Assembly (NCBI GenBank): GCA_963668035.1
Contig: OY764073.1
Coordinates: forward strand, 66,930-130,929
Direction: 5' to 3'
Source: Candidatus Poribacteria bacterium
GTDB lineage: Bacteria; Poribacteria; WGA-4E; WGA-3G
Length of the DNA: 64,000 nucleotides
The position numbers and the translations under genes were made by a program. Position 1 is the stretch's first letter, and the number at the start of each line of letters is the position of its first letter. The notes below the pieces were generated by a model that was not told where the DNA came from, ran no database searches, and saw nothing but the letters and a program-made list of their open reading frames with translations. Shown here one piece after another: positions 1-61,637 of the stretch.

Positions 1-1653
1 ACCTGCGACCAAAGGTTGGAAATCGATCAAGGTCAGGCGTAACCGTTGCGATGCGTTGGATTTGCAGCCATTGTGAACCGAAGTCGCGCGCGAATTCTAC
101 TGCTTTCGGGTCCGCTAACATCCGTTGAGTTTGTGCGTCAAGATTGTCAGTCAGCTGATTTTTCGCCGCGAGTTCAAAAAGTTCATCATCTGGCATACTA
201 CGCCATAGGAAATAGGAGAGCCGCGATGCAAGTTGGAACTCATCAATCGGGTGGGGATCGGGATTTTGTGGACGATCATCTAATTCCAATCGGAATAGGA
301 ACTTAGGCGAACAGAGAATAACTTTAATCGCCTGTTGAATGCCTGCTTCCCACTTCGCGCCATCGGCTTGAATGGATTGGACGAACTGTGTGAGTTGTTC
401 TATTTCGGTTTCGGTCGGCGGACGGCGATACCCTCGATGGAGCAAACGGGTCAACACTTCCCGCGTCTGTTCTATTTGCGGGAGGTCCGGTGTACATGCC
501 AAAATTTCGAGTTGGGTATCCGGACGGGTATCTAACGGACCTTCTGCCCAAAGCGTCCGAATCTGGAGTTTAGCGGACACCTCACCCTCTATAGGCTTAA
601 CCATCGCGATCCCGACTCTGTCGATGTTCGGGATCCCGGTAACAAGCACTTTGACAGTCTGTGTTTTTTTCGGGTCGCGGGCGGTAATCTCAAAAGTCTT
701 TAGGATCTTGATAGAGTTGTTCGATGCCGTGTCCACACCGATTAACCGCCCAAGTTCGGTTGGCGTGGAGACCTCCGCGAGTGATTCGCCTTGAATAAAG
801 AGGGCGATTTCAACAGGCACTTCACTATCAGTTTCAGCATAGAGTGTTGCCTTGTAAAGGATTTCTTCTTCGGGGAACATCCTGAAGAATGGCGCACCTG
901 TCGTAAAGGGGCCGGATTTCCACGTCTCTGTGGCGGTTGGATCGAGGAGTCGGAAGCGTTGATCGGGGACATCGTCGTGGCGTGGATCGAGGCGCGATCC
1001 TCTTTGGTAGCGTTTTGATGGCGGCGGTGGTTCTACTAAAATAACACGCGTCGCAATCGCTTCTGCTGCTTCAAGGTAGCGTTCCATCAGGAGCGGCGAC
1101 ATCGTTAGCACATCACCGATATTATCAAAGCCGTGTCCTACGTCGTCCGCTGGGAAATTTTCGGTCGGATCGAAATCAACACCGAGCAGGTCTCGTACGG
1201 TATTTTTGTATTCAACTTTATTCAGTCTGCGTATCGTGATGCGTCCTGGATCGGGTTTTGCTGTGCGATCTGCTTGTTCAAAGATTGATTCGATATGCGC
1301 AACGAACGCCTCTGATTCTGCTAAGGGGGGTTGAAGGTCACTCTCGGCGGGCGGCATGTAACCTGTCGCTACCATGTCTAAGACGCGGTCCCATACGTCG
1401 CGGTTCTCAATCAGGGAGCGTCCATCTGAAAATATATCAAGAGAGACTTCGGCAGCGGGTTGATCGCCGGTGTGGCAGCTGAAGCAGTATTTTTTCATGA
1501 AGGGGATGCCTTCTTTTGAGAAGCCTGAAGTGGCCTCTTCCCGCGGGGTCGCCGTAAAAACTACGAGGACTAATACCAGCATTAGACCGAGGCATTGTGG
1601 GATATATTTAGGAATGGTTATCTGTCCATGTTCGCGGATCTTAGTAAATGCCA
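1..1653 (-). CDS. PSCyt/DUF1587-DUF1592-family protein with N-terminal cytochrome-c CxxCH motif. Partial: 3' end runs off the window.
   Basis: Hand translation of the minus strand from the ATG at 1653 is open to position 1, so it is absent from the ORF track (no stop inside the window). Contains KKYCFSCH (heme-binding CxxCH) and a signal/TM segment. Overall resemblance to Planctomycete PSD/DUF1592-family proteins. Confidence 0.6.
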
Positions 1654-1887
1654 TATTTCTGCCCTTTTTCTGCGGTTATGCTAAGAGTTTGTATCATTAA
1701 GTATAAAACATTTTTGGCAAATAATCAACCTTTTCGAGCCTGAAAAGGTTACTTTTTACGCTAATCAGACGCAATTTGCTTTTTTAAGATGGTTTTGGTA
1801 AAATGGTGGCAATAGAGTCCCACAACCTACACTTATCTTCGGAATTCATACGCGTTGAAAACGCACGCGATAGGAGAATCTATATCC

Positions 1888-2958
1888 ATGAATCAACACG
1901 AACAAGAGGTAATTGTGAATGCAACGGCGTTGCAAAATGTCTGTAGCCGCCTCTATCAAGCAGTCGGTGTTACCCAATCGGATGCAGATACCGTCGCGGA
2001 AATGCAGGTCTTGATGGACTTGCGCGGCGTTCATTCACACGCGACACGCGGCGTACCGGGGTATGTCCGCGGCATCATCAGCGGGAGTATTAATCCCAAT
2101 CCACAACTTCGAACACTTGAGGATAACCCTGCCTCTGTTCTGTTAGATGGCGACCGCGGGTTGGGGCATCTCGTCGCGGTTCGTGCGATGAACATCGCTA
2201 TAGAAAAGGCGAAATCTGCTTCTATCGGTGTGGCTAGTGTTCGGAACAGCAATCACTTCGGGGCTGCCTCAAGTCATGCAATGCGCGCCTTGCCACACGA
2301 TATGATCGGTTTCGCAACAACTAACGGGCTCGGTGTGAATGTGGCTGTCTTCGGTGCCAGGAGCGTCTCTATCGGAAATAATGCGTTTTCCTATGCGATC
2401 CCTGCGGGTGAGGAACCGCCGATTGTGTTGGATATGGCCTGCGGTGCCGCTGCGGCTGGTCGGATCGGAACTGCAAGGTTATACGGAGAGAAAATTCCGA
2501 TGGGATGGGCACTTGACGCAGATGGCAACGAAACCGATGATCCAACGAAGGTAGCCGCTATCCTACCCGCTGCGGGTCCGAAAGGTTCTGCGCTTTCGAT
2601 AGTGATGGATGTTTTATGCGGACCGCTGAGTGGGGGGTTAATGGGTATCAATAAACAGTATCAGCCCGGGGACGCGCCCCCAGGGAAACGCGTATCGGCA
2701 CACTTTTTCTATGCTATTAATATCGCCAGTTTCACCGCTGTTTCAGAGTTCAAGGCAGAAATTGACCGTCAGATTCGGATGACCCGCCAAGCTACGCCAC
2801 GAGCCGGTTTTACGCGCGTTACCTTACCCGGCGAGATTGAGTCGGAATTGACGCAAGAACGCCTTGAAAACGGGATTCCGCTACACAAGGAACCCTTGCA
2901 ATCACTTGAGCAACTCGCCGATGAGTTAGGTGTCGAAATCCCGTGGAACAAGCAGTGA
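1888..2958 (+). CDS. Ldh_2 family (malate / L-lactate / sulfolactate type-2) dehydrogenase, paralogue 1
   Basis: 367-aa ORF whose first codon (1855) is TTG. An ATG at 1888 is preceded by AGGAG. Motifs SNHFGAA and the DMACGAAAAGRI region are typical of Ldh_2 (PF02615). Confidence 0.8.
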   Translation: MNQHEQEVIVNATALQNVCSRLYQAVGVTQSDADTVAEMQVLMDLRGVHSHATRGVPGYVRGIISGSINPNPQLRTLEDNPASVLLDGDRGLGHLVAVRAMNIAIEKAKSASIGVASVRNSNHFGAASSHAMRALPHDMIGFATTNGLGVNVAVFGARSVSIGNNAFSYAIPAGEEPPIVLDMACGAAAAGRIGTARLYGEKIPMGWALDADGNETDDPTKVAAILPAAGPKGSALSIVMDVLCGPLSGGLMGINKQYQPGDAPPGKRVSAHFFYAINIASFTAVSEFKAEIDRQIRMTRQATPRAGFTRVTLPGEIESELTQERLENGIPLHKEPLQSLEQLADELGVEIPWNKQ

Positions 2959-3043
2959 ATTTTTCCTTTTATCCTGCTAATCCCTAAATCAGAAAAATCA
3001 CAGTTCTAACAGTTTCAACAATTGAATACCTCTCGGATTAAAA

Positions 3044-3210
3044 CCAGGGTCATTCAATTGTACGATTTGGATCTTGGTTTTGCTTTACATAAGTGAACGT
3101 TCTTGGGAAAAGATCGCGAGCGACAAGAAACACCCTATCAAAAACACTCGCTCCTACAGGCGAAAAAATTCATATATGTAAAGTGAATAGGTACAATTGA
3201 ATAGCCCTGG
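3044..3210. repeat. Dispersed ~160-bp intergenic repeat, copy A (inverted relative to copy B at 44709-44859)
   Basis: The reverse complement of 3044-3210 aligns with 44709-44859. The ~45-bp flanks are near-identical (CAGGGCTATTCAATTGTACCTATTCACTT... and ...GTAAAGCAAAACCAAGATCCAAATCGTACAATTGAATG). It contains three CAATTG boxes and a central hairpin + T-tract (3107-3160). Confidence 0.8.
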
Positions 3211-3227
3211 ATTAAAACAAAAAATAT

Positions 3228-3256
3228 TTGACATTCCTTTAAAAGTTAGGTATAAT
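3228..3256 (+). promoter_or_regulatory. Consensus sigma70-type promoter, TTGACA-N17-TATAAT, upstream of the OTCase-like gene
   Basis: TTGACA at 3228-3233 and TATAAT at 3251-3256, with a 17-bp spacer, about 40 bp upstream of the ATG at 3298. Confidence 0.6.
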
Positions 3257-3297
3257 TATGGTTTCTTATTGAAACAATACATGTTGTGGAGGTAATT

Positions 3298-4236
3298 ATG
3301 CACCTAATTACATTGAACCCTTGGTCAGAAACAGATATTCTTGAGACAGTCGAAGCCAGCCTGAATATAAAAAAATATCCCGAAAAGTATAGGCACGCTG
3401 TGGGTGGAAAGAGTCTCTGCCTACTCTTCCAAAAAACCTCCACGCGCACCCGCTGTGCAGGCGAGATCGGTATGACACAGCTCGGTGGACACGCGCATTA
3501 CCTCGACTGGCGCACGACGAACTTCGCATTAGCCGACCTCGGCGATGAAATGCGTGTCCTCTCGGCGTACGTTGATATTATCTTAGCTCGCTTCTTAAAA
3601 CACGCTGAACTCGTTACGGCCGCGACTGCCGCAACGGTACCGGTCATTAACGGGTGTTGCGATAAGTATCATCCGACGCAAGCATTAGGCGATCTCATGA
3701 CGATACAGGAACACCTCGGTAGACTGGAAGGGGTCAAGTTGTGCTTTGTCGGGGTGCATAACAACGTCTGTAATTCGCTGATTGCTGCTGGCATGAAGGT
3801 CGGTATTGAAGTTACCGTCGTCGCACCGGAGGTGAACCCCGCTGCTGTGGATCGCGAATTATGGGATACTGCTGCGCGGAAAGGACTCTATAAAGTGCTG
3901 GATACGGAGAGTATCAACGTCGGTAGTGCGCTGGAAAATGTCATCGCCGAAAGTGATATTGTCTATACGGATACGTGGGTGGACATGGAATTTTTCACGG
4001 ATCCGGCTTTTGCGGAAGAACGGGAGCGTCGGTTAAAAAAGATGATGCCGTATCAATTGAATGCCGAGTTACTAAAAGGATACGCGGGTAAGATTATGCA
4101 CTGCCTCCCCGCACATCACGGATATGAAATCGCAGGTGAAATTGTCAACGATGAACGCGCAATTATCTTTGATCAGTCCGAAAATCGGCTGCATAGCATG
4201 AAAGCGATCCTTTTGAGATTGCTTGCGCACGCCTAA
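3298..4236 (+). CDS. argF: Ornithine carbamoyltransferase-family transcarbamylase
   Basis: STRTR carbamoyl-phosphate-binding motif and HCLP motif. The track start at 3286 is GTG. The ATG at 3298 follows GGAGG. Confidence 0.8.
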   Translation: MHLITLNPWSETDILETVEASLNIKKYPEKYRHAVGGKSLCLLFQKTSTRTRCAGEIGMTQLGGHAHYLDWRTTNFALADLGDEMRVLSAYVDIILARFLKHAELVTAATAATVPVINGCCDKYHPTQALGDLMTIQEHLGRLEGVKLCFVGVHNNVCNSLIAAGMKVGIEVTVVAPEVNPAAVDRELWDTAARKGLYKVLDTESINVGSALENVIAESDIVYTDTWVDMEFFTDPAFAEERERRLKKMMPYQLNAELLKGYAGKIMHCLPAHHGYEIAGEIVNDERAIIFDQSENRLHSMKAILLRLLAHA

Positions 4237-4246
4237 TTCACCTTCT

Positions 4247-5443
4247 ATGCTAACAAGGAAAAAGTTTTTGAACCGACATCCCTCTTTTTCACATAGCGAA
4301 ACATTAGAAGACCTTGTCTGCAGCAAGTGTGGTGAAATCTATCCGCATACGGTGCCGCAGAACGTCTGTACCGCTTGCGGGAAACCGCTGCTCGCGCGCT
4401 ACGCCCTTGAACAACTGGCAGGTACCTGGACGCGCGACACACTGCTATCACGACCCGCATCACTCTGGCGATATTCGGAACTCCTGCCTATATCCGATCC
4501 ATCGGACATCGTAACGCTTGGGGAAACAATGACACCGCTCCTCCACGCGAAAACATTGGGGGCGCGGTTCGGTCTCACGGAGGTGTGGGTGAAAGATGAA
4601 TCACGGTTGCCTACGGGTAGTTTCAAGGCACGCGGTTTAGCGATGGCAGTCTCTAAGGCAAAATCCCTCGGCGTGACGCAACTGGCGATCCCGTCCGCTG
4701 GTAACGCTGCGACCGCCCTCGCGCTTTATGCTGCCGCCGCAGGAATGACCGCCCACATCTTTATGCCACAGGATACACCCGCCTTCAATAAGGAGACGTG
4801 TCAACTCTCAGGAGCAAACGTTACCCTAATTGACGGTTTAATCACAGACGCTGGCAGAATCGTTGCGGAACGGAAAACGGGCGGAGGCTGGTTTGATGTG
4901 TCAACGCTCAAGGAACCGTACCGCGTGGAAGGCAAAAAGACGATGGGTTTTGAACTTGCAGAGCAATTTAAGTGGGAGCTACCGGACGTTATCATCTATC
5001 CTACGGGCGGTGGCACGGGTATCGTCGGGATGTGGAAAGGTTTCGCGGAGTTAGAGACGATCGGGTGGATCGGTAAGAAGAGACCGCGTTTTATATCGGT
5101 GCAATCTGCCGGCTGCGCGCCGATTGTTAAGGCGTGGGAAGAAGGTGCGACGGAGGCAATGCCGTGGCAGGGCGCTCACACGATAGCAAGCGGCTTGCGT
5201 GTGCCACAAGCGATCGGGGATTTTCTTATTTTAGAGGCGATTCGTAAGAGTAAGGGTGCCGCAATTGCCGTCACGGACGATGCCATCCGCGAGGCAATGC
5301 GACTGCTTCCTACAACTGAAGGGCTCTTAGCGGGTCCGGAAGGTGCCGCGACTGTCGCTGCACTTGCGCAACTCGTCGCGAACAAAATGATCGATCCTTC
5401 CGAACGCGTTGTCTTATTCAATACCGGTGGCTATCAGGCATGA
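4247..5443 (+). CDS. thrC: Threonine synthase with N-terminal Cys4 zinc ribbon
   Basis: SFKARG PLP-lysine motif. N-terminal CSKCG...CTACG. The track start at 4223 is TTG and overlaps the upstream gene. The first in-frame ATG is at 4247. Confidence 0.8.
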   Translation: MLTRKKFLNRHPSFSHSETLEDLVCSKCGEIYPHTVPQNVCTACGKPLLARYALEQLAGTWTRDTLLSRPASLWRYSELLPISDPSDIVTLGETMTPLLHAKTLGARFGLTEVWVKDESRLPTGSFKARGLAMAVSKAKSLGVTQLAIPSAGNAATALALYAAAAGMTAHIFMPQDTPAFNKETCQLSGANVTLIDGLITDAGRIVAERKTGGGWFDVSTLKEPYRVEGKKTMGFELAEQFKWELPDVIIYPTGGGTGIVGMWKGFAELETIGWIGKKRPRFISVQSAGCAPIVKAWEEGATEAMPWQGAHTIASGLRVPQAIGDFLILEAIRKSKGAAIAVTDDAIREAMRLLPTTEGLLAGPEGAATVAALAQLVANKMIDPSERVVLFNTGGYQA

Positions 5444-5453
5444 ACGGAGATCG

Positions 5454-6200
5454 CTATCGGTTTTCAAGATAGTCGTAAGTTGGGGCTTCCTTAGTTTCCT
5501 CGGTTTCCTCTCCTGTTTCAGATGCCTTTTTCTTCAGATGATAGCCGACCTCATGCTGTTCCACCGCTATAATTGGATAGGGACCGTCAAATCCGACGAC
5601 GATGCCTTGTACTTCAACGGGTTTACCAGTATTGCCTACATCTGTCCGGAGTTGATCGAACTCAGGATTGGCGTCAAAAACGAAGTTCTGTCCCTGATTC
5701 CTTGTGGTCATCGCATGCTGGATATTGGAGGTCTCTGGCCGCCAGCGTCGCCATGATGGAACGTTTCGGATATAGCTCCGGGCGAAGCCGGGGTGTGCGA
5801 ACATGTTGCCGCGGATAGTCGCATGCGTTTTAAGTACACGGGCACCACCGAGTCCATGTCGGCCCCGGAAACGTGAATCGTTCAGCTGCCGCATGATATT
5901 ATAAACGTCAAACGTGTGGGTCTCGCTATATTTGGAAACGCCCTGTCTCGGTTTGATTTCTACTACAGTCGTGAAGGGCCGTTTTCTGCCGTGCTTATCA
6001 ACGGCGGGACTAAAGGTAACATCCTTTGGGTCCGCCCACGGTTTTAACAGCCGCCGAATCTGCCATGCATCGGCATTGCTGACAACATCGGAAATCTCTA
6101 TTTTCAGGACAACCGCATCTTCAGCCATGCTGACCATGCTGATCCCTACAAATAGGATGACCACCAGAAAAGTGAGTAAATAGAAGTGTGTGCGTTTCAT
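5454..6200 (-). CDS. Secreted or membrane-anchored hypothetical protein
   Basis: N-terminal hydrophobic signal/TM segment (FYLLTFLVVILFVGISMVSMA). No recognisable catalytic motif. The ATG at 6200 has GAGGAG 8 nt upstream. Confidence 0.5.
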   Translation of the reverse strand: MKRTHFYLLTFLVVILFVGISMVSMAEDAVVLKIEISDVVSNADAWQIRRLLKPWADPKDVTFSPAVDKHGRKRPFTTVVEIKPRQGVSKYSETHTFDVYNIMRQLNDSRFRGRHGLGGARVLKTHATIRGNMFAHPGFARSYIRNVPSWRRWRPETSNIQHAMTTRNQGQNFVFDANPEFDQLRTDVGNTGKPVEVQGIVVGFDGPYPIIAVEQHEVGYHLKKKASETGEETEETKEAPTYDYLENR

Positions 6201-6865
6201 TCTCATCTCCTCGCTTAATTTTGTAAGTTTCTCTTTCCTAACCTATTAGACACCATTCAAAGTAAAAAGTTTCAAAAAAAATTACAGAACCTCAATCCGA
6301 TAGTTTCTATGACGTAAAATGCAACTTGATTCCAGTGCGGTCTAATTATTAGTGACGCGTTCTTTCGGTGAAAAGGGTGCATAATTTTTGATTCTCTGAA
6401 ACGTTAAACTGCCAAACGGAGAAAAAAGTTTACAGAGGTATCGGATAATTTACGAATTTTCGCTTCTGCGTCCAAAAGCAGTTTAGGTTATTAAGCGCGC
6501 CCTATTTCGTGCAATTAAATGTAAAGAATGCCCCATTTTGTGCAACGGTTCTCTGCGTTTTTGAGGGGAACAACGTAGGTGTCGTATTATTCAGATTGGC
6601 ACAGAATTTGCTACAATCTAAGCAACAGACTCGGTATTAGATAGATTTCGTAGGGGCGAGGGCCCCTCGTCTCCTGACAGCGAAATTGACACAAGTTCAA
6701 CTGGTTTTTACTAAAGTATATAGGATTTCCCGAAAAAAGTCAAAAAAACGGTTGTACAAATTCTTTGAAAATTACAAGGAAATATGCTAACATTTAAGAA
6801 ATGGACTCTATGCCATAAGCTTTGAGTCAAAGATAATATATAGGACAAAATAGGAGAAACACGTT

Positions 6866-18508: not shown

Positions 18509-18650
18509 TTTCTTTGTTTTTTTGTAGGAGCGACCTCCCGGTCGCGATCTTTTCTTGTCAAGAAAACCAATGATTTTAATTCCATTTAATGATATTATAC
18601 CGTATTGGAAGATGAATGTCAAATTTTTTTAAAGGTCGCCAAATAACGCA

Positions 18651-30064: not shown

Positions 30065-31675
30065 TTAGGTATGAAGTGCTGATGGGGCTTCTTGGACTAC
30101 AGGAATAACATAACTCCGAAGCGTTAGGCCTGACACCCTCTCTGTCTCTACCATCGGCTCCGGATTCTGGCGGTGATCGAAGACGATATAGTAGCCTTTC
30201 TCCGCGCCCTCCGATTTTAAGTAGGCAGCGAGTTGTTGTTTCCCCGCCGCATAACGGCTCGATCCTTCCCAAATCTTGGTTTCGATGATGTATTTCTGCT
30301 GGTTATGGAGAATAAGCAGGTCGAGTCTGCCGCGCCCAGTTGTCACTTCGTGGAACATCGTTCCGCCCATAGTGCGAACAAACTGATCGAGATAGGCAGA
30401 AAGCAGGTATTGCCCAACAAATTCCTGGGGGGTTTCTGGCACTTGGAGGATCTTGTAACCTGCGCGAGTGATAAAGTCCTTGAAATTTTCAATAAGCAGC
30501 CCTATCTCAATATCTCCATCGGAAGTAAGATATTCAGAAAGGTCGGGACTGGTATTTTCAGGAAAGTAGTCATTCTCCAGTCCATTAAGCAAGGGTTGGA
30601 ACGTTTGCATGATACATTGCTGATAAATCGGGTTGATGATCTCACACATACCATCAGCCCCTTTTCCGATAACCCCATAAGTGGCGAGTTCACTGATGAT
30701 GTCGTCACGGAGCAGGAAAGGCACGCCTTTGTCATAAGAGATGATTTTCATCAATACGGTTTCAAATCGACGGTTTTTTCGGATGTTCGTCGTTAGATGC
30801 GACAGATTGGTATTATCCTCCGCAAGGAGTTGTGTAAGGGCCTGTGCGAAGTGCTCCATTGCAATCGTCTCGGTTTTCGGAGTATCCAGTTCTGTGGTAA
30901 GAATCTGTCCGAGCCGATTGACGAGGAAGGGTTGTCCTGCGGTCTGTCTGTGAATAGATTCAATCACTTCGGGTGCGAAGGGTTGTCCGACTTCATCGGT
31001 ATATTGCCCAAAGAGGTCGCCCACCTGTTCCAAGGTAAAGTTCGGCAGGTGAAATTCGTCTTGGATGTTGAAGGGCGAGATAGACCGGTCATAGTTGAGT
31101 TGTGCGATGCTCTTGACTCCTACAATGCCAACGCTGTGCAGGCATCGCTCGTCTTCAAAATGGTAGATGTGGCGGAGTGTATGAAGGAAATCGCTGACGG
31201 CAGCTGGGGGGATGCCATCAAACTCGTCAATGATGAAGACCACTTTTTGCTCCCCATATTCCACCGTCAATAAACTCGCGAAATCTTCAAAAAACTCCAG
31301 CATTGAACCGTGATGGCTGAATGTAGTGTTATCCAAGAGTTGTGTCAATGCTTCAGAAAGTCCGTGACCGCGTTTCTGAAAAACGTTCTCTATCTGTTTG
31401 CGGATCCTTTTGTAAAGCAATTCGTAAAAATCGGGAGGCGAGAAGTTTTTATAGATATCAAAGCTGAGTTGGATCGGGAAATAGGTTAGGTCTTCCGCAT
31501 CGAGCGTGGCGAGTGCCAATCGGAAAAACGTTGTCTTGCCGGTCTGGCGCGGCGCGAAAAGAACGATGTACCGTCCATCCTTCACGCGATTGATGAAATC
31601 TTTAATCTCGTCGGTGCGGGGGACGACGTAATGCCGGTCAGGTCGTACCGAGCCTTGGGTGCCAAACGTTCGCAT
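30065..31675 (-). CDS. AAA-ATPase-like N-domain + C-terminal PD-(D/E)xK nuclease-fold protein (DUF1703/PDDEXK_9-type), paralogue 1
   Basis: Walker A APRQTGKTTFF. C-terminal GRGRLDL...YIIETKIW (D...ExK). About 60% identical to 45019-46614. Confidence 0.75.
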   Translation of the reverse strand: MRTFGTQGSVRPDRHYVVPRTDEIKDFINRVKDGRYIVLFAPRQTGKTTFFRLALATLDAEDLTYFPIQLSFDIYKNFSPPDFYELLYKRIRKQIENVFQKRGHGLSEALTQLLDNTTFSHHGSMLEFFEDFASLLTVEYGEQKVVFIIDEFDGIPPAAVSDFLHTLRHIYHFEDERCLHSVGIVGVKSIAQLNYDRSISPFNIQDEFHLPNFTLEQVGDLFGQYTDEVGQPFAPEVIESIHRQTAGQPFLVNRLGQILTTELDTPKTETIAMEHFAQALTQLLAEDNTNLSHLTTNIRKNRRFETVLMKIISYDKGVPFLLRDDIISELATYGVIGKGADGMCEIINPIYQQCIMQTFQPLLNGLENDYFPENTSPDLSEYLTSDGDIEIGLLIENFKDFITRAGYKILQVPETPQEFVGQYLLSAYLDQFVRTMGGTMFHEVTTGRGRLDLLILHNQQKYIIETKIWEGSSRYAAGKQQLAAYLKSEGAEKGYYIVFDHRQNPEPMVETERVSGLTLRSYVIPVVQEAPSALHT

Positions 31676-39108: not shown

Positions 39109-40119
39109 ATGCTTGCCCGAAATAAAACCCGTAGAGAAAGCCGGTGGTATTTGCTCGTTATCGTACTCACCGGATTCGCCGGACTCAGTTCTTGTGTGAG
39201 CACGACGCTTAACACAACCGGTTCAGCTTCAATGACAAGTAACGAGGCGTACGCCGACATCAAAATGACTGCTGAACAACTTGAATATAGCGGTGATCCA
39301 GATGCGCACGAGATGTTCATTGAGAAATCAAGGGCTTTTATCAAGGCACACCCGAAATATAAACGCGTCGATGAGGTATATTATCTGCTCGGAACCAGTT
39401 TAATGCAGCGCAACCGTGCCGAAGAAGGGATTGCAGTATTTGAGGAACTCATTCGGTACTACCCTACTGCCGATTACGTTGAACCGAGTTTGTTAATGTT
39501 GGGATTGGCTTACGATAAAGCCGGTGAACACGATAAGGCGGATCCGCTTTACGAAAAACTGGTAAATCGTACGAGGGACCATGGTAGGAGTAGATACTCT
39601 GAAATCGCACAGCAGCTCCTTGAACAGGATAGAGATGCCAGAACAGGCGAATTAGCTGACGCATCTGCCGCGGACACGGGGCCAAGTGCGAGTCAATTTA
39701 TTAATAAACCTGCGTTAGATTTTCAGGTGACGGATTTGTGGGGCGAATCGCTCTCGCTGTCGCAGTATCGTGGACAGGTCGTGCTGCTCGATTTCTGGGC
39801 GACGTGGTGTTCACCCTGTATCGCTGAGATGCCGAACGTTAAGAGGACCTACGCGAAGTACAAAAACCAGAAGTTTGAGATTATTGGCATCAGTTTAGAT
39901 CAGTCAACAGCACCGCTTGAAGCGTACATCGCAGATAAAGGGCTCACGTGGCGACAATATTGGGATAATAACGACAGGATTGGCAATATGTACAACGTTC
40001 GCTCAATACCGTCAACTTTTCTGATTGATGGTGCAGGCATTATCCGTCAAGTCAATCTGCGGGGCAGCGCGCTTGAGACAGCGGTTGCTGCACTCGTGCA
40101 GGAGAATTTGGAGAATTAA
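39109..40119 (+). CDS. Lipoprotein with an N-terminal TPR-like domain and a TlpA/ResA-type thioredoxin domain
   Basis: Lipobox LSSC. FWATWCSPCIAEMP (WCxxC redox motif). GGAGG RBS. Confidence 0.75.
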   Translation: MLARNKTRRESRWYLLVIVLTGFAGLSSCVSTTLNTTGSASMTSNEAYADIKMTAEQLEYSGDPDAHEMFIEKSRAFIKAHPKYKRVDEVYYLLGTSLMQRNRAEEGIAVFEELIRYYPTADYVEPSLLMLGLAYDKAGEHDKADPLYEKLVNRTRDHGRSRYSEIAQQLLEQDRDARTGELADASAADTGPSASQFINKPALDFQVTDLWGESLSLSQYRGQVVLLDFWATWCSPCIAEMPNVKRTYAKYKNQKFEIIGISLDQSTAPLEAYIADKGLTWRQYWDNNDRIGNMYNVRSIPSTFLIDGAGIIRQVNLRGSALETAVAALVQENLEN

Positions 40120-40183
40120 ATACCGTTTTGCTGGTGAGGTTTACGATAACAAACAAGTTTCAACAAAGCTGAGGAGGTTGAAG

Positions 40184-41947
40184 ATGTTCTGGAAAAATAA
40201 AGTAGGTTCACAACAGAGGGAAAATAGAGGTTTCTGTAATGTCCTTGTTGGCGCGCTCACAGGTCTTGTGCTAATCGGTTTTTGTATGAACTTCGCTGGT
40301 GCCGATGCCGATTCGTTGAAAGCCGCTTACAAATATCAGGAAATTAAGGCGATTACTAAGAGCCTTAGGAAACAGAACACGTCTGAAAATTTAGAGAAGT
40401 TGATGGCGAAAACCAGAGACTTTGTTAAGGCACACCCGGAATACAAACGCGTGGATGAAGTTTACTATCTTCTCGGTAACGCTTTGGTTCGCTTGGAGCG
40501 TGTTGACGAAGGCATTGAAGTCTTTAACGGACTTATCAAGGATCGTCCGAATGCACGCTACGTTGAACGCTGCCTATTAGAATTAGGATTAGCGTATGAC
40601 AAACTCGGCAAGCACGATGAAGCCGATGCGGCTTACCAGCAATTAATAAATCACCCGAAGTACGGCTCACGATCACAAGCGAAACTCGCGAAGAAGATCC
40701 TTGAGCAGGAAAGAACCGACCGAAAGGGCGAATTGCCCAAACCGCCCGGGGCAAGTCCTGCACCCGGAATGCGGCCGAGCGAATGGCTTAACAAACCCGC
40801 ATTGGATTTTCAGGTGACAGATTTAAACGGTGAAACACTCTCCTTAGAAAACTACCGTGGACAAGTTGTTTTGCTCGACTTCTGGGCGACGTGGTGTCCG
40901 CCTTGTATCGCAGAGATACCGAACGTTAAAAGGACTTATGAAAAGTATAAGGATCAGAAGTTCCAAATCATCGGTATCAGTCTTGACAGGTCAAAAGAAC
41001 CGCTTGCGGCATACATTGAGGAAAAGGGGCTCGGATGGCTCCAATATTGGGACAACACGCGCAAAGTTAGCAATCTTTACAAAGTCCAGGCGATCCCGTC
41101 AACCTTTTTGATTGATGGTGAAGGTGTTATCCGCAAGACGAGTCTCCGCGGTCACTCGCTTGAGCATGCCGTCGCCGAATTGGTGAAGGAAAATCTTGCG
41201 AAACCTACCGAGTCGATACCTGCAACGAAGATTCTTAAACAGGAGACAACGCCTGAAGGCGCGCAACGGACGGAACCTAATGTCAGAGACATCATCACTG
41301 CTGCTGTCGCTGCACACGGCGGACTTGAGAAACTACAAGCCGTGAAAAATATCGTGACAGAATCTCACAGTTTTGAACATTTTCCTGATGGGGATGTGCA
41401 GGATGAGGGACGCTCTAAAGCGTACTTTTACCGCGACAAATTCCGTAGCGATTGGGAGGCAAACGGTCAAACAGGCGGTTTAATCTTTGATGGTAATTCT
41501 CTCTTTCAGTTAGCAGATGGCGCGGTCCAACCTGTACCCGCTGAAGCAACTCAATCTTATATTACCTTCTTTAAAGATAGCTTTTTTCGGGAACCGATCT
41601 GGCTTTTACCCATGCTCTCAAAAGGCGATATTCCGGTTCAATACGCAGGCACAGCGGAAGTCAAGGGGATGCCTACGTCCGTTCTTCTTGTTACGCAGCC
41701 TTCTGGGAAAAAGCTGAAAGTCTTCATTAGCGATACAACGCACTATATCGTCCAGTTTAGTTATGACGTTGAGATCGGCGGCGGCGTGGAAAACGTGGTA
41801 GCGTTCTTTGAAGATTATCGGGATGTGGATGGCATTAAAATCGCACATCATCGCGCCACAAAGAACGGTGAATATCGGCAAATCTTGATTACCGATGTTA
41901 AATTGAACGCTGAAGTTGACGAGGCACTGTTTCGACCGGGAGAATAA
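40184..41947 (+). CDS. Paralogous TPR + TlpA-type thioredoxin protein with an extra ~250-aa C-terminal domain
   Basis: FWATWCPPCIAEIP. About 45% identical to the upstream gene over the shared region. The track start (40025) overlaps the previous gene. The ATG at 40184 follows GGAGG. Confidence 0.75.
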   Translation: MFWKNKVGSQQRENRGFCNVLVGALTGLVLIGFCMNFAGADADSLKAAYKYQEIKAITKSLRKQNTSENLEKLMAKTRDFVKAHPEYKRVDEVYYLLGNALVRLERVDEGIEVFNGLIKDRPNARYVERCLLELGLAYDKLGKHDEADAAYQQLINHPKYGSRSQAKLAKKILEQERTDRKGELPKPPGASPAPGMRPSEWLNKPALDFQVTDLNGETLSLENYRGQVVLLDFWATWCPPCIAEIPNVKRTYEKYKDQKFQIIGISLDRSKEPLAAYIEEKGLGWLQYWDNTRKVSNLYKVQAIPSTFLIDGEGVIRKTSLRGHSLEHAVAELVKENLAKPTESIPATKILKQETTPEGAQRTEPNVRDIITAAVAAHGGLEKLQAVKNIVTESHSFEHFPDGDVQDEGRSKAYFYRDKFRSDWEANGQTGGLIFDGNSLFQLADGAVQPVPAEATQSYITFFKDSFFREPIWLLPMLSKGDIPVQYAGTAEVKGMPTSVLLVTQPSGKKLKVFISDTTHYIVQFSYDVEIGGGVENVVAFFEDYRDVDGIKIAHHRATKNGEYRQILITDVKLNAEVDEALFRPGE

Positions 41948-43532: not shown

Positions 43533-44552
43533 TTATAACATTTTAATTTGGGTCCACGTTTCCGCGTCTATCGGAATGCCTTCCCGTTCCCGTTTGCGTT
43601 GTTCTTCCCAACCGCGTTCCCCTGGCATCCGAATGGTGTCAATACCGGCAGCGCGCTTTGCGGATTTGAGATACCCAATAAACCGCGCTATCTCCGCGCT
43701 GAATCCAGGAAACTCTCTAAAACTTGCAACATTAATCACGAGGACAAACAATCCGTTGCCGACGCGGGCATCTTCACCTTGGCTACACCCTGCACCTGTC
43801 AGCGCGCCCGCAAGAATATCGACAATAACACTCAGCCCGAATCCTTTATGTGCAGCGATCCCACCGAACGGCAATAAGGCAGCCGGTGGCGTGCTATAGA
43901 AATCATTTGCATCTGTCGTCGACTTGCCTGCTGCGTCAATCAACCATCCGTGTGGCAGTGCCTCCTCTCGGTGCTGTTTAACCCGAAGCTTCCCCGATGC
44001 CACAACACTCGTAGACATATCTAATATGATCGGATCTTGTCCTTCAACAGGCACTGCACACGCGATCGGATTCGTAGAGAGTCTACCTTCAACCCCGCCG
44101 TGTGGTGCGACACACGTGCCTCCGCCGTGATCGTTTGCCATGAGCAACGCGATCATTTCCGCATCTGCCGCGAGGCAGGCATAACCGCCTAACCTACCGA
44201 CTTCATTGCACCGTGAAACAGCAACGGAACTTATATCCGTGTGCTTCGCTTTCTGGATTGCCAATTCAACGGCGCGCGTCGCAATTACGGGACCGAACCC
44301 CCAATTGCCATCTAACACCGCAATAGACGCGGATTCGTGCAGCGTCTCTGTTGGTGCGCCGGGTTGGATTAATCCTGCTTCCAGTTCGCGGACATATTTT
44401 GGGAGGTGGATAACGCCGTGGGAATCGTGTCCGACGCGATTGGCATCCACCATAGAGCGGGTTACGATTTCCGCTTCGGCTGCGGGCACCTTTAATTTTT
44501 CAAAGACGTTAAGGCAAATAGCGGTGAGTTCTGCTGCTGTAAAGTTCGGCAT
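43533..44552 (-). CDS. Ldh_2 family dehydrogenase, paralogue 2
   Basis: HDSHG, AAHKGFGLS and PGERG motifs of the Ldh_2 family. The ATG at 44552 has GAAGGAG upstream. The 48 N-terminal codons of the track ORF are an artefact of reading through the upstream direct repeats. Confidence 0.8.
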   Translation of the reverse strand: MPNFTAAELTAICLNVFEKLKVPAAEAEIVTRSMVDANRVGHDSHGVIHLPKYVRELEAGLIQPGAPTETLHESASIAVLDGNWGFGPVIATRAVELAIQKAKHTDISSVAVSRCNEVGRLGGYACLAADAEMIALLMANDHGGGTCVAPHGGVEGRLSTNPIACAVPVEGQDPIILDMSTSVVASGKLRVKQHREEALPHGWLIDAAGKSTTDANDFYSTPPAALLPFGGIAAHKGFGLSVIVDILAGALTGAGCSQGEDARVGNGLFVLVINVASFREFPGFSAEIARFIGYLKSAKRAAGIDTIRMPGERGWEEQRKREREGIPIDAETWTQIKML

Positions 44553-44581
44553 TGCGATGCGGCTCCTTCGCTGGCGAGGTG

Positions 44582-44625
44582 TTTTTGCTTGGGTGTTTCT
44601 GCATATTGCTTGGGTATTTCTGCGG
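44582..44625. promoter_or_regulatory. Tandem 18-19-bp direct repeat (TTGCTTGGGTRTTTCTGC x2), operator-like, 30-75 bp upstream of Ldh_2 paralogue 2
   Basis: GTTTTTGCTTGGGTGTTTCTGCATATTGCTTGGGTATTTCTGCGG. Confidence 0.45.
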
Positions 44626-44708
44626 ATTTCCCCTAGGAACCTCACTATATGGGATACTGCTATTTTACAAATCTCCATCGGTGTTGTCAAGTGCAAATGA
44701 GAAAAAAT

Positions 44709-44859
44709 CAGGGCTATTCAATTGTACCTATTCACTTTATATATGTGAATTTTTTCGTCTGTAGGAGCGAGCTGTGCTCGCGATTTTTTGCTAATAACAT
44801 TCACTTGTGTAAAGCAAAACCAAGATCCAAATCGTACATCCAAATCGTACAATTGAATG
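44709..44859. repeat. Dispersed ~160-bp intergenic repeat, copy B. Contains a terminator-like hairpin GCGAGC-tgt-GCTCGC + T6 at 44764-44790.
   Basis: See copy A. Also an internal 12-bp tandem duplication TCCAAATCGTACA x2 and CAATTG boxes at 44719 and 44850. Confidence 0.8.
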
Positions 44860-45018
44860 TCTCTGAGAAAAAATTTGCCCGTTGTAAGATTTTCCGATTA
44901 AGTTGATAAAAATCCGAAAAGGAGATAAACTAATAGAAAAGCAAATATCTTTTGTGCTATACTTTACAACAACAAGCTTTGACTTACGGAGTGGAGAAAT
45001 GCACAAGGTGGTAAAAAA

Positions 45019-46614
45019 ATGAGACGTTTCGGAACCCAAGGCCGCGTGTACCCTGAAGATAATTACGTTGTCCCGCGCACAGCAGAGGTCGTCGATTTTA
45101 ACAACCGCGTCAAACAGGGACGGTACATCGTTCTGTTCGCGCCCCGGCAAACCGGCAAAACCACCTTTTTCCAGCTGGCACTTGATGAACTCGTCGCAAG
45201 AGATTCAACTTATTTCCTAATTCAACTCAATTTTGAGGCGTATGAAGACTGCACGCCCCCGGAGTTTTACGAGGGGCTCACAGGTGATATGCGTGAGAAA
45301 ATCACAGATTTCTTTCAAGAACGTGGACAGGCACTCCCTAAGACACTCACCGACTTATTAGAAACCACGCAATTCACTAATCACCTCTCTCTGCGACAAT
45401 TCCTTAAGGCGTTGGGAAGAGTGTTAAAGGATCGACGCGTTGTCCTCATCATTGATGAGTTCGACGCTATTCCACGTGATGCCCTGAAAGGTTTTCTTCG
45501 CGTGCTCCGCGATATCTATCTCTCTGGCAGGACGCGATGTCCGCATAGCGTTGGTATTATTGGGGTTAAAGACATCAAACAGCTGGATTACGACAGATCC
45601 ATTTCGCCGTTTAATATCCAAGATGAGTTTCACTTGCCCAATTTCACAGTTGCACAGGTCTGTGAGTTGCTTGTACAGTACACCGACGAGGTCGGTCAAG
45701 TGTTTGAGCCTGAAGTTATTAGGAGCATTCATAGGCAGACCGCCGGACAACCGTTCCTTGTCAACCGATTTGCACAGATTCTCACCGAGGAGCTCGATAT
45801 CCCGAAGAATGAGGCGATCCAGATGGCGCACTTTGCCTCGGCACATACGCAACTCCTTGAAGAAACAAATGCCAATATCAGCCATCTACTAACCAATATC
45901 CGCAGAAATCCGCGTTTTGAAAGCGTCCTGATGCGAATCACTTCTTACGAAACCGGCCTCCGCTTTAATCCTGACGACGAAATCATTAATGAGCTCACTA
46001 CTTATGGAGTCATTACAAAAGGATCCGACCGGATGTGTGAGATACTCAATCCGATATATCAGCAGCGTATCATGCAAGCGTTCAAGCCGCTCGTCAATGG
46101 ATTAGAAAACGAATATTTTTCCAAGGATACCCATCAAGGCTTGGCGGATTATCTGACCCCTACAAGTCAAATTAAGATGGACTCGCTCCTTGACAACTTT
46201 CGGGATTTTATTGCGCGGGCGGGCTTCCGGATTCTATTGGTGCCGAATACACCAAAAGAGTTCGTCGGACAGCATCTTCTCTACGCGTATCTGGATCAAT
46301 TCGTCCAATTAATAAATGGGCATATCTACCTTGAAGGGCAAACTGGACGCGGCAAAATAGACCTCGCGATTTTCCATAACGCCCAAAAATACATCGTTGA
46401 GACCAAGATATGGGAAGGGCTCCGGTCCTATCGAGCTGGCAAGAAACAACTTGCGGCGTATCTGCAATTGGAAGGTGCCGTTGAGGGGTACTATATCGTT
46501 TTTGATCATCGTGAACAACCAGAGCCACAAGTAGAAACGGAGACGGTAGATGGAACGAAGATTCGGAGCTACGTTATCCCCGTGATGCAAAAACGGCCTT
46601 CACAAGCCGGTTAA
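45019..46614 (+). CDS. AAA-ATPase-like + PD-(D/E)xK protein, paralogue 2
   Basis: APRQTGKTTFF. GRGKIDL...YIVETKIW. Paralogous to 30065-31675 on the opposite strand. Confidence 0.75.
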   Translation: MRRFGTQGRVYPEDNYVVPRTAEVVDFNNRVKQGRYIVLFAPRQTGKTTFFQLALDELVARDSTYFLIQLNFEAYEDCTPPEFYEGLTGDMREKITDFFQERGQALPKTLTDLLETTQFTNHLSLRQFLKALGRVLKDRRVVLIIDEFDAIPRDALKGFLRVLRDIYLSGRTRCPHSVGIIGVKDIKQLDYDRSISPFNIQDEFHLPNFTVAQVCELLVQYTDEVGQVFEPEVIRSIHRQTAGQPFLVNRFAQILTEELDIPKNEAIQMAHFASAHTQLLEETNANISHLLTNIRRNPRFESVLMRITSYETGLRFNPDDEIINELTTYGVITKGSDRMCEILNPIYQQRIMQAFKPLVNGLENEYFSKDTHQGLADYLTPTSQIKMDSLLDNFRDFIARAGFRILLVPNTPKEFVGQHLLYAYLDQFVQLINGHIYLEGQTGRGKIDLAIFHNAQKYIVETKIWEGLRSYRAGKKQLAAYLQLEGAVEGYYIVFDHREQPEPQVETETVDGTKIRSYVIPVMQKRPSQAG

Positions 46615-58936: not shown

Positions 58937-60292
58937 TCACTTGCTTTCTGCGCCTTCGCTGGTTTGTAGCACCTCTTTTTCAAGGATCGCCATCTTTGTC
59001 GTCCGCCAAAACAGATCCCCTGGACCCACAGCGTGCCATTGTCCATTTACGAACGTCATCACAGCACCATCTCTCCTTTCCGGTGAAAGTGTACTGCGCG
59101 GAAAACTGTGCTTGTCTCCCCAATTTGAATAAGTGAGCGGTTCGCCGTTCTGCCACACCCATTCCCCCTCTTTCTCCGCATCGCTGAGCCCGATCCAATA
59201 GAGATGATTCCCAAAGAGTCCTGATAGCCACTTCTGTTCCGCTTCGTCATTAATAGCGACGAGATGCGCGCCTTCGGCAGCGGCTCGGTTTTTCGCGTCA
59301 TCCAGACTTCTACACCGTATCTTTCTATAGGCGTGCCCATTTGCTGGATTTACTGCCCAGGCATCTTTCTCCCACGGCGGACGTATCTGCCGGACGGGTT
59401 CAGGACTTGTTACACGCGTCGTTGTTACGCCCGGTTTTACTTCCACCTGTTTAACTTCAACACGATTTGGTGCAGCAGGGTTTGTTTGATCGGACGGTTT
59501 TGATCCACCTGTCAATTTACGTAGGAGATCGGGCAGTGACTCCTTAGGACGTTTTGATTGCGTTGGTGCAGGGGCGGACGGTGCCTCGCCATCGAGTGTC
59601 AGTACCAAATTGTCATGGCGCCCACCCGGTTCAATTTCAAACTGTTCCGACTCCGCCGCCAAACCCTTATATTTCACCGAGACCTTGCAAGTTACGGGTT
59701 CCTCGTTGTCATCGAGGTAATGCACAAAATAGCCGTCGGTGTCCGTAGTTGCGCTCCCGCTGTGTGTGCCGTTGCTCTGAATTACCTTAGAAATAGAAGC
59801 GTTCCTTAAGGGGTCCCTGTCTTTGAAAACGACTCTTGTCCGAATTCGCATCCGCGGACGCACAGTAACCGCTATATTTTTGAAGTGACTTCCCGGTTTG
59901 GTGGCAAATCTTAGGTTTCTGAAAGGCGGAGGCTCGCCTTGATAAAGTGTTATCCCTCCGATTTTAATGGAGACAATTTCATTGTCCGGTTCAAGGTTGA
60001 ATGTAGGCTTGCCATCTTTCCCGAACTGCTGCGGCGGAATCATAATTTGCGCCGGTCCGGCAGGGACATCAGTGAACGTGAAAGCTCCATTTTCATCGGT
60101 CTTTGCTATTTGAAAAGCTGGTGCCAGGCTAATGTTAAATCCTGTAATCGGTTTTCCCGTCGTATCAATAACGACACCGGAGAGTGTCCCTTTTTCGGTT
60201 TCTGCGATGCAAGGGTTCAAAGCGATGAGGGAAAGTGATACTGCAATTCCGATGCGGCATAGAACGCCCATAAAATTCAAACGATTCATCAT
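58937..60292 (-). CDS. Secreted carboxypeptidase-regulatory-like (CarbopepD_reg) + C-type lectin domain protein, paralogue 1
   Basis: Signal peptide. LSGVVIDTTGKPITG. C-terminal CTLD (WAVNPANGHAY...C...YWIGLSD...EGEWVWQNGEP). Confidence 0.8.
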   Translation of the reverse strand: MMNRLNFMGVLCRIGIAVSLSLIALNPCIAETEKGTLSGVVIDTTGKPITGFNISLAPAFQIAKTDENGAFTFTDVPAGPAQIMIPPQQFGKDGKPTFNLEPDNEIVSIKIGGITLYQGEPPPFRNLRFATKPGSHFKNIAVTVRPRMRIRTRVVFKDRDPLRNASISKVIQSNGTHSGSATTDTDGYFVHYLDDNEEPVTCKVSVKYKGLAAESEQFEIEPGGRHDNLVLTLDGEAPSAPAPTQSKRPKESLPDLLRKLTGGSKPSDQTNPAAPNRVEVKQVEVKPGVTTTRVTSPEPVRQIRPPWEKDAWAVNPANGHAYRKIRCRSLDDAKNRAAAEGAHLVAINDEAEQKWLSGLFGNHLYWIGLSDAEKEGEWVWQNGEPLTYSNWGDKHSFPRSTLSPERRDGAVMTFVNGQWHAVGPGDLFWRTTKMAILEKEVLQTSEGAESK

Positions 60293-60307
60293 AAATTCTC
60301 CTTGTTG

Positions 60308-61522
60308 CTAATTGTCCTTAGAGCGGGTCTCAACGGCTAAGGATGCTTTTTCAAGAATCGCCACTTTGATAAAATCCGCTCCGCCACCAGGGCCAGATGC
60401 AACCGCCGTCCATCTGCCAAGAAATCCGGTGATGACATAGTCTTTCATCTCAGTGTTACCACCCTCTTTTTCATGTTCTTGCCAATTGGTGTAGGTAACA
60501 GGTTCGCCGCTGTGCCATTGCCACTGTCCCTCCTCGGTGACATCGGTCAGCCCGATCCAAAAACTATCTCGGTCAAAGATACCTTGTAGCCATGCGTTTT
60601 CCGCCTTATCGTTAATGGAAACGAGGTAAGCCCCTTCTCCAGCAGCTTGGTTCATCGCATCTTCTACACTTTGACAATAAATCTTTTTGTAAGCGTGTCC
60701 GTTTGCGGGGTTCACTACCCACACTGTTGGTGGATTAAGAAATGCCTCGAACAGAGGCGGCTCTAGCGGACGTTTAGCCGGGGGAACTGGATTGCCGTTG
60801 AGGGTCAAAAGAAGGTGGACTTGCGGTTGCCCCTCATGCAAAATAAAAGGCGGTGCTTTCGCGAGGAGTCCTTGATGTTCAACACCGATCACGTAGAAGT
60901 GAGGATCGTCATCTTTAAGGTCTTGCACGAAATATCCATCCGCATTGGTTTGTGCTGTGCTACCTGAATACCCGCTTCCACTGCCGTCCAGATCCCTGTG
61001 TAGTATGTGCGTACGAATTTGAGCGTTGGTAACCGGTGTTTTGTCAGCAAAAACGACGCGCGCACGGACCTGCGGCCGGATATTTGTCTTCACCGTAATA
61101 ACAGCGTCTTCGATGTTCATCCCTGCCGCCAGGGAAAACGGCATTTCCCGAAAATGTGGATGAATATTCGGATAAAGCGTGAGTTCACCGATTTGGATAG
61201 ACAGAATTTGTGTTTCTGTCTGTTCGTCTTCTACGGCAAATCTAACGGATTCCGCCGGTGTAATATGTGAGATAGAGAAGCGTCCTTCCAAACCGGTCTG
61301 CCTTTGCCATATTTCTACCCATCCGCCTATTCGTTTGTTACCCATAATTTTATACGGTTGGATCGCTATTGAAATACCGACAACCGGATCCCCGACTTCA
61401 TTAACAACACGTCCGGAAACCGTCACCCCTTCTTCCGCAAAGGTAGATGCGGATACCAAAACGGATAGCACTGCAATCCCGATAAAAAATCCGAGATTTT
61501 GCCTGAAACTTTGAACCTTCAT
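60308..61522 (-). CDS. CarbopepD_reg + C-type lectin protein, paralogue 2
   Basis: Same architecture. The start was moved to the ATG at 61522 (GAAGGAG RBS, immediately followed by a signal peptide). Confidence 0.8.
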   Translation of the reverse strand: MKVQSFRQNLGFFIGIAVLSVLVSASTFAEEGVTVSGRVVNEVGDPVVGISIAIQPYKIMGNKRIGGWVEIWQRQTGLEGRFSISHITPAESVRFAVEDEQTETQILSIQIGELTLYPNIHPHFREMPFSLAAGMNIEDAVITVKTNIRPQVRARVVFADKTPVTNAQIRTHILHRDLDGSGSGYSGSTAQTNADGYFVQDLKDDDPHFYVIGVEHQGLLAKAPPFILHEGQPQVHLLLTLNGNPVPPAKRPLEPPLFEAFLNPPTVWVVNPANGHAYKKIYCQSVEDAMNQAAGEGAYLVSINDKAENAWLQGIFDRDSFWIGLTDVTEEGQWQWHSGEPVTYTNWQEHEKEGGNTEMKDYVITGFLGRWTAVASGPGGGADFIKVAILEKASLAVETRSKDN

Positions 61523-61637
61523 ACTAGATTCTCCTTCTATAGACATACTACCCCTACCGGGTAAAGAACTGTTCTTATAGCATATAGAGACATCTACTCT
61601 TAAAAAGGAGAGTAAAAAAACAGACGGTGTCAACTAT

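Follow-up and report, generated by a model that had tools for sequence, protein, structure and literature searches.

The window analysed here is a stretch of 64,000 nucleotides (64 kb) from a Candidatus Poribacteria genome, in which two copies of a short intergenic element, A and B, lie in inverted orientation. Each lies upstream of a promoter, which belongs to an OTCase-like gene in the case of copy A and to Ldh_2 paralogue 2 in that of copy B, copy B sitting entirely inside the 466-bp spacer that separates the start codons of its two neighbour genes, and in both cases the right end of the element is directed towards a gene. The two copies are one and the same element, as 3045-3209 on the plus strand aligns end to end with 44865-44709 on the minus strand; by alignment and repeat finder the flanks are 90-95% identical and the middle is divergent (the repeat finder gives 63-nt arms at 95% and 90% and 38-nt arms at 84%). 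A sequence-only reading had already described this inverted pair with conserved flanks and a divergent centre, and the repeats it placed at 3044-3210 and 44709-44859 are real, but their exact ends are 3045-3209 (165 bp) and 44709-44865 (157 bp). Its 28-nt insertion in copy A turned out to be a net gain of 21 nt, the hairpin loop being 25 nt in this copy against 4 in the others; the tandem duplication that it saw in copy B is present but measures 13 bp and not 12; and its count of three CAATTG boxes per copy was too high, given that the third site of copy A (3019) lies outside the element and copy B has two. The features of the window are as follows.

3016-3034, minus strand: possible relic TIR left by an earlier element (CAACAATTGAATACCTCTC, four mismatches), with 10 nt between its tip and that of copy A on the left side
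3036-3044: left target-site duplication (TSD) of copy A, GATTAAAAC, read in the sequence and computed
3045-3209, plus strand: MITE copy A, 165 bp, canonical orientation, from the alignment with copy B
3045-3063, plus strand: left terminal inverted repeat (TIR) of copy A, CAGGGTCATTCAATTGTAC, by repeat finder and pattern search
3113-3157, minus strand: internal hairpin module of copy A, loop enlarged by 21 nt, terminator-like structure weakened
3169-3197, plus strand: outward promoter-like site at the right end of copy A, TTCATA-17-TACAAT, -10 within the TIR, consensus match only
3191-3209, minus strand: right TIR of copy A, CAGGGCTATTCAATTGTAC, by repeat finder and pattern search
3210-3218: right TSD of copy A, GATTAAAAC, read in the sequence and computed
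3228-3256, plus strand: predicted host promoter of the OTCase-like gene, TTGACA-17-TATAAT, 12/12, -35 starting 18 nt past the tip of copy A
18524-18548, plus strand: hairpin-only fragment without TIRs, by module match
44662-44690, minus strand: predicted host promoter of Ldh_2 paralogue 2, TTGACA-17-TAAAAT, 11/12, -35 starting 18 nt past the tip of copy B
44700-44708: promoter-proximal TSD of copy B, ATTTTTTCT on the minus strand, read and computed, single in the empty site of locus L030
44709-44865, canonical orientation on the minus strand: MITE copy B, 157 bp, from the alignment with copy A
44709-44727, plus strand: right TIR of copy B, CAGGGCTATTCAATTGTAC, by pattern search
44721-44749, minus strand: outward promoter-like site at the right end of copy B, TTCACA-17-TACAAT, consensus match only
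44761-44784, plus strand: internal hairpin of copy B, GCGAGC-tgtg-GCTCGC followed by GATTTTTT, terminator-like, on the strand opposite to the neighbour gene
44825-44850, minus strand: 13-bp tandem duplication, two units of GTACGATTTGGAT, private to copy B
44847-44865, minus strand: left TIR of copy B, CAGAGACATTCAATTGTAC, one mismatch to the pattern, by pattern search
44866-44874: distal TSD of copy B, read in the sequence and computed

Both copies end in TIRs of 19 bp (CAGGGnnATTCAATTGTAC). This 19-mer pattern has four matches in the window where 0.26 are expected, and for the 12-mer ATTCAATTGTAC 0.38 occurrences are expected in 64 kb but four are present, each of them at an end of copy A or copy B. 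A search for TIRs and target-site duplications had been proposed on the strength of the letters, and both were found, with TSDs of 9 bp at each copy that are unlike each other; such direct repeats private to each copy are what transposition by a staggered cut leaves behind. Matched with nhmmer against a profile of seven copies, copy A gave an E-value of 1.9e-40 and copy B one of 5.4e-41. The element ranges from 143 to 165 bp, with a consensus of about 143 bp, well within the limit of about 600 bp used for MITEs, and has no coding capacity. It should be noted that mechanically called ORFs touch copy B (43533-44696, 44552-44764, 44649-44906, and 44791-45150) and lie near copy A (3246-3449); as such ORFs enter both copies, the non-coding status of the MITE was judged by its size and position and not from the ORF list. 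No ISAs1-family transposase is encoded in the 64-kb window. The relic TIR candidate beside copy A has an exact core of 11 nt, which was equalled in 4-7 of 500 shuffles, and is only suggestive of the remnant of an earlier element.

Two 'Candidatus Poribacteria' MAGs contain a 27-mer taken from the right MITE end, and when metagenome contigs were scanned with the TIR 19 loci were identified; the same scan of viral contigs gave no match. Full copies outside the window were found at loci L001, L002 (two copies, a and b), and L015, with a diverged variant in L024/L025, giving seven full copies at unrelated loci across the window, the two Poribacteria MAGs, and metagenome contigs. The TSDs at these sites are all different (L001 GGGACACTAT, L015 CCCTTTTTC, L024 CCAACAGGT, and L002a TTGCA[C/A]ACGT), and direct repeats of 9-10 bp flank five of six copies of this element (MITE1) and the L024 variant, while no clean TSD was found at copy L002b or at the type-2 element of L027. 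Copy B is identical in L022 and L023, which are contigs of the same population (99.5% identical). Locus L030 represents the site of copy B in its unoccupied state: ATTTTTTT occurs there once, joined directly to the left flank and to the promoter with no MITE in between, the alignment across this empty site scores 81 against a shuffle maximum of 37, and the locus carries an orthologue of Ldh_2 paralogue 2 with 91% amino acid identity. No simple empty site for copy A was present among relatives, where other elements occupy that site; here an exact look-up of Ldh_2 paralogue 1 gave no match and orthologues of at most 90% identity were used instead. The element is thus dispersed in multiple copies and polymorphic for presence and absence, as a MITE is expected to be, and of the two alternatives offered by the sequence-only reading the MITE-like one is supported.

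All surviving copies are intergenic and their neighbour genes share no common function. The sequence-only reading had attached weight to the proximity of each window copy to an Ldh_2 gene, and had rightly seen that the two Ldh_2 proteins are only distantly alike (about 30% identity claimed, 32% found), but tblastn at all loci detected no Ldh_2 beside the copies of L001, L002, and L015. As no other copy has an Ldh_2 neighbour this adjacency is a coincidence. The possibility, left open by the same reading, that only two copies exist and that these have no terminal repeats is contradicted by the five further copies and by the 19-bp TIRs.

The surroundings of the two copies are variable in several respects. 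In the 5' UTR of Ldh_2 paralogue 2 (window 44580-44625, minus strand) there is a 21-bp tandem repeat, GCAGAAA[T/C]ACCCAAGCAA[T/A]A[T/A], which is one unit shorter in L023 than in the window and L022. Compared to window 44573-46571, the 95% identical locus L029 has neither the AAA_35 ATPase gene nor MITE B nor the Ldh_2 paralogue 2 promoter, and its epimerase gene directly adjoins Ldh_2 paralogue 2. The AAA_35 gene may be a variable cargo in its own right, and in L036 a further IS copy is located immediately upstream of an AAA_35 gene. The window contains two AAA_35 ATPase paralogues (30099-31675 and 45019-46614) which are inverted and 66-70% identical in DNA (repeat I1). Direct repeats at 39310-41075 and 59312-63427, termed D1/D3 (two units about 1085 bp apart) and D2 (four units about 1350 bp apart), look like tandem arrays of paralogous genes. 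On the side of copy A, synteny of L024/L025 with window 1-3044 breaks exactly at the MITE site: the OTCase gene (99.5% identical in nucleotides) is preceded there by a gene for a 1125-aa protein, so that the gene upstream of the same OTCase promoter in L024 differs from the Ldh_2 paralogue 1 of the window, and in L027, a TARA contig, the Ldh_2-OTCase order is kept. This comparison of gene orders suggests a rearrangement at these elements. L024 (2810-2978, also in L025) further carries an insert of about 165 bp with TIR GGACTTACGCA/TGCGTCAGTCC between the OTCase promoter and the ribosome-binding site, which is absent from the window and resembles another small mobile or palindromic element.

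The same TIRs are found at the ends of an autonomous IS. At L010 (6810-8147) a 1338-bp IS with the TIRs of the MITE carries ORFs matching PF13808 and PF01609, and the intact 392-aa transposase of L016 matches NF033564, 'ISAs1 family transposase', with 213.7 bits against a cut-off of 70. No extra domain, such as a sigma-like one, was detected in the transposase at E-values up to 10. An IS with a matching 19-bp TIR is present at L010, L016, and L031-L038, the full copies in L031-L038 being 1341-1347 bp long with TSDs of 9-10 bp; across the IS copies 12 exact TSDs measure 10 bp and that of L031 measures 9 bp. Relatives of this IS number more than 2000, many of them on contigs of 1.3 kb, and several lie on Mb-size contigs matched in length to those with Poribacteria Ldh_2 orthologues; in metagenome MKWU01 the IS and MITE copy L015 are both present. 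A sister IS of 62% identity (L039-L044) has the TIR CAGAGGGGTTCAGTTTTAG and 10-bp TSDs, and a more distant member (L013) is 1233 bp long with 35-40% amino acid identity. IS elements of the ISAs1 family are about 1.2-1.5 kb in length, and the MITE1 ends start with CAGGG at seven of the eight window and locus ends (CAGAG at the left end of copy B). The family is characterised by inverted repeats of 14-22 bp starting with CAGGG and by 10-bp direct repeats (PMC11946415; PMC6305408), and ISArsp11 has a length of 1306 bp (PMC6305408). In inverted repeats, direct repeats, transposase domains, and IS length, the MITE ends and their partner IS agree with this family.

On these sequence features the MITE is an element with ISAs1-type ends, whose putative partner is a 1.34-kb autonomous IS in the same hosts, and it would be mobilised in trans by the ISAs1 transposase. 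The relationship extends to the ends only. The left 100 nt of the MITE aligned to the IRL region of the IS with a score of 41 (shuffle mean 28.9, maximum 44), and similarity of the right end to the IS beyond the TIR was not significant, so that we do not claim the MITE as a deletion derivative of the IS; since its interior is unlike the IS beyond the TIR, only shared ends are claimed and the IS is a partner by its ends. Two further observations concern the repeats with these ends. The ISAs1 copy of L010 has no TSD and a frameshifted transposase, and directly upstream of it (5336-6676) there is a 446-aa ORF which is transposase-like by reading only; this looks like a cluster of ISs in decay. 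L011, L017, and L021, which are JAAUXW01 contigs, share the 19-bp TIR and a different common interior (CCTAATTCAACACTGGG...) with outer flanks that are alike, and may represent a further repeat family with these ends in another community.

The position of the insertions relative to promoters was analysed in a set of 26 independent events (8 MITEs and 18 ISs) with 49 outward flanks, a small set assembled by exact-match scanning and from a few transposase look-ups. Reading outward from the right tip of either window copy, one meets the 9-bp TSD, nine further bases, and then TTGACA, a fixed spacing that, like the TSDs, had gone unnoticed in the sequence-only reading. A match of at least 5/6 to TTGACA, with promoters predicted by consensus match only, was found at offset 18 or 19 in 18 of the 49 flanks (offset 18, n = 6; offset 19, n = 12), while the remaining 43 offsets pooled gave 17 matches, offsets 0-17 and 20-44 averaging 0.4 each; the excess at offsets 18-19 corresponds to a Poisson p of about 1e-18. 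Three insertions at the OTCase promoter share this one promoter and are not mutually independent in this count. A TAnnnT -10 box at a spacer of 16-18 accompanies 16 of the 18 hexamer flanks, the spacer being 17 in 15 of these, and the genes downstream are in the same direction as the promoter. The probability of a random window site having such a hexamer on either side is 0.0245, compared to 17 of 26 events observed. The ISs show a preferred orientation, the promoter lying on the side of the end downstream of the transposase gene in 11 cases and on the other side in 2 (p 0.02). In L002a, L031, and L044 the geometry is kept with a weak -35 hexamer, and in about a third of the insertions (L001, L015, L010, L019, and L034) there is no promoter at the expected offset.

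As a control, seven ISAs1 members from plasmids, 25-35% identical, were analysed in the same way. These have other TIRs (CAGGGCTGATGCAAAG, CAGGGCAAACGCATC, CAGGGTGAGAGCGTGAAC, and others) and exact 10-bp TSDs in five cases, none being found for L047 and L048, and none of the seven shows a TTGACA-like hexamer at offset 18-19. Promoter targeting across the whole ISAs1 family is ruled out by these members, and the landing rule is therefore specific to the clade with ATTCAATTGTAC ends, in which the distant member L013 also follows it.

Insertion beside a promoter has in several instances been repeated at the same place. In L035 the order is a relic end, AGATCCAGA, the MITE, AGATCCAGA, the IS, GAGATCCAGA, 9 nt, and TTGAGA-17-TATAAT, and at both L040 and L041 the IS sits flush against one tip of a previously inserted MITE. 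The promoter interval of the OTCase gene is occupied by three elements in three lineages, namely copy A, the L024 variant with its TSD CCAACAGGT, and in L027 (4390-4570) a second type of TIR element of about 180 bp. This stacking is expected if the promoter-proximal copy of the target is left intact by each insertion. Two arrangements allow two readings each. In L016 (3694-3741) two ISs lie head to tail with 10 bp between them (CTTTAATTAT), which is either stacking at a single target or a tandem, circle-junction-like arrangement; in L026 (1-71) the right TIR of copy A and its TSD GATTAAAAC are followed by a different interior, the contig ending 52 nt inside, which is either a second element stacked there or an assembly join in a repeat.

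We hold with considerable confidence that the element is an ISAs1-family MITE of Poribacteria-like genomes which would be moved by a transposase supplied in trans and targeted to positions upstream of promoters, and that both window copies are such insertions. The CAATTG boxes would be the transposase-binding ends, the 19-bp ends being recognised by the DDE transposase of the 1.34-kb autonomous IS, which would excise or copy the MITE and insert it by a staggered cut of 9-10 bp to give the flanking direct repeats. The target would be a 9-10-mer that is separated, on its promoter side, by 9 bp (in rare cases 8) from a -35 of TTGACA type further downstream, and that lies at roughly -45 to -54 from the transcription start. 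Because insertion upstream of the -35 leaves the core promoter intact, the gene would not be disrupted; because each insertion would regenerate the promoter-proximal target copy, further elements could stack at the same place; and near-exact landing upstream of promoters would place both window copies in front of genes. Less firmly, though we consider it the likelier state of affairs, this ISAs1 clade and its MITEs use sigma-70-type promoters as a landing signal, at a fixed 9 bp upstream of the -35, with the transposase gene usually in the same direction as the promoter and with the target regenerated. The cue might be TTGACA itself, read directly, or promoter-bound RNA polymerase sensed by the transposase. 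Each of these is favoured by a single case: L032, where the target has a TTGACA to either side, one of which lacks a -10 box, favours direct reading of the DNA, and L002a, with a poor -35 hexamer and an extended -10 box at the right distance, favours sensing of the promoter.

The same distribution could in principle arise if insertion were random and purifying selection removed all but harmless copies, promoter proximity then being a matter of survivorship. That only intergenic copies survive fits this explanation, as does the third of insertions lacking a promoter at the expected offset, and the promoters themselves are consensus predictions. Selection of this kind predicts a broad spread upstream of promoters and downstream of genes, however, and not the single-base peak observed, nor does it account for the reuse of an identical 9-10-mer by repeated insertions; moreover, the other ISAs1 members, subject to the same kind of selection, show no peak. 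We consider survivorship unlikely, and the geometry points instead to a clade-specific choice of target about 9 bp upstream of the -35.

The sequence-only reading had also offered a shared operator or promoter cassette, in which pairs of CAATTG boxes would be operators of a host regulator and the element would be retained for the promoter or terminator that it supplies to its neighbours. Several features would suit such a role, including the outward promoter-like T(T/C)CA(C/T)A-17-TACAAT at the right end, which in both window copies is aimed at a gene, the terminator-like hairpin with a T-run on the other strand, and the recurrence of the hairpin module, with compensatory stem changes, in other MITE subfamilies. 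The boxes, however, are TIRs in common with a transposase-encoding IS and occur only as TIRs. The neighbour genes own near-consensus promoters, and the presence of that of Ldh_2 paralogue 2 in L030 without a MITE means that the strong promoters are outside the element and older than it. The hairpin points away from the genes next to it, in copy A it is disrupted, the copies of L001 and L015 are not beside promoters, the neighbouring functions are unrelated, and Rfam gave no match. A cassette of this kind is on this evidence quite improbable.

Scarcely more than a slight chance is left for a small structured RNA gene or REP-like palindrome spread by a non-DDE mechanism. The whole element does fold as one long hairpin through its ends (z of -5.1 and -4.5) and the inner hairpin is conserved, but the long fold is unremarkable because any MITE forms one by pairing of its TIRs, and the inner hairpin alone is no more stable than shuffles (z of -0.7 to -1.0). 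Rfam 15 gave no matches over the whole window, the flanking genes are encoded on the other strand from the hairpin and T-run, which is not the arrangement of an intrinsic terminator or REP-like element, and CAGGG ends with duplications of 9-10 bp are the ISAs1 signature. The hairpin module, GTAGGAGCGA-N-TCGCGAT, is common to several MITE subfamilies and occurs three times in the window (once in each copy and once at 18524-18548) against none in shuffles, in agreement with the third hairpin of the same type noted earlier near 18524. This third occurrence sits in a divergent spacer, has a 38-nt match to the L001 copy (E 1.3e-5) with compensatory stem changes, and matches the inner hairpin of the L041 MITE subfamily at 21 of 24 positions. 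It was rejected as a full degenerate MITE, matching profile positions 60-98 only (E 0.015) without TIRs, and is probably the relic of a related, sister MITE subfamily.

Finally, a relic of segmental duplication, or gene conversion between two intergenic regions, would suit the presence of just two full copies in the 64-kb window but is, as the sequence-only reading had also concluded of segmental duplication, hardly conceivable, since homology ends precisely at the TIR tips, the 9-bp direct repeat is private to each copy, copies exist at unrelated loci of other genomes, and there is an orthologous empty site.

Bacterial MITEs such as the Correia elements of Neisseria, the MaeMITEs of Microcystis, and the Tn3-derived TIMEs are likewise small, non-coding, and intergenic, with TIRs, a TSD, and several copies, and have ends in common with an autonomous IS able to supply the transposase in trans; the MITE described here differs from these in its ISAs1-type ends, in a hairpin module common to sister subfamilies, and in its promoter-fixed insertion point. 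The partner IS resembles the ISAs1 family (ISAs1, IS1358, the H-repeats of E. coli, ISArsp11, and ISPa60) in its length of 1.34 kb, its 19-bp CAGGG inverted repeats, its 9-10-bp direct repeats, and its one ORF with DDE_Tnp_1_assoc and DDE_Tnp_1 (NF033564), but has a distinct inner inverted repeat (ATTCAATTGTAC) and promoter-proximal targets, which are absent in the seven plasmid-borne members. Insertion at a fixed distance and in a partly fixed orientation, into a harmless landing place used repeatedly, is also known from IS1202-group elements at dif/pdif, IS1111/IS110 elements at REP or attC, and Tn7 at attTn7. These systems rely on Xer sites, guide RNAs, or a dedicated target selector (TnsD), whereas here a one-ORF DDE IS lands beside a generic promoter element of which there are hundreds per genome. 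Ty3 at Pol III start sites and Tf1 at Pol II promoters similarly integrate just upstream of transcription units and spare the coding sequence, but with unrelated enzymes and with tethering to transcription factors that has been demonstrated. In the literature searched we found no description of ISAs1-derived MITEs in Poribacteria and, in a limited search, no account of ISAs1 or other DDE ISs choosing promoter-proximal targets.

A MITE in an uncultured phylum is a matter of routine annotation, relevant to gene calling and to assembly breaks, as several contigs terminate within these repeats. The MITE itself is ordinary, and it is the clade-specific landing rule that is the interesting part. A fixed landing place accounts for the local hot spots and synteny breaks beside these elements. 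If the rule is true, a simple DDE transposase would have a built-in 'safe harbour' rule, which would explain the persistence of these elements in compact genomes, and insertions would mark real promoters in unculturable organisms, each of them flagging a -35/-10 pair. It would also provide a testable case of a transposase reading a generic promoter element, and thus a bacterial counterpart of the promoter-targeted integration of Ty3 or Tf1.
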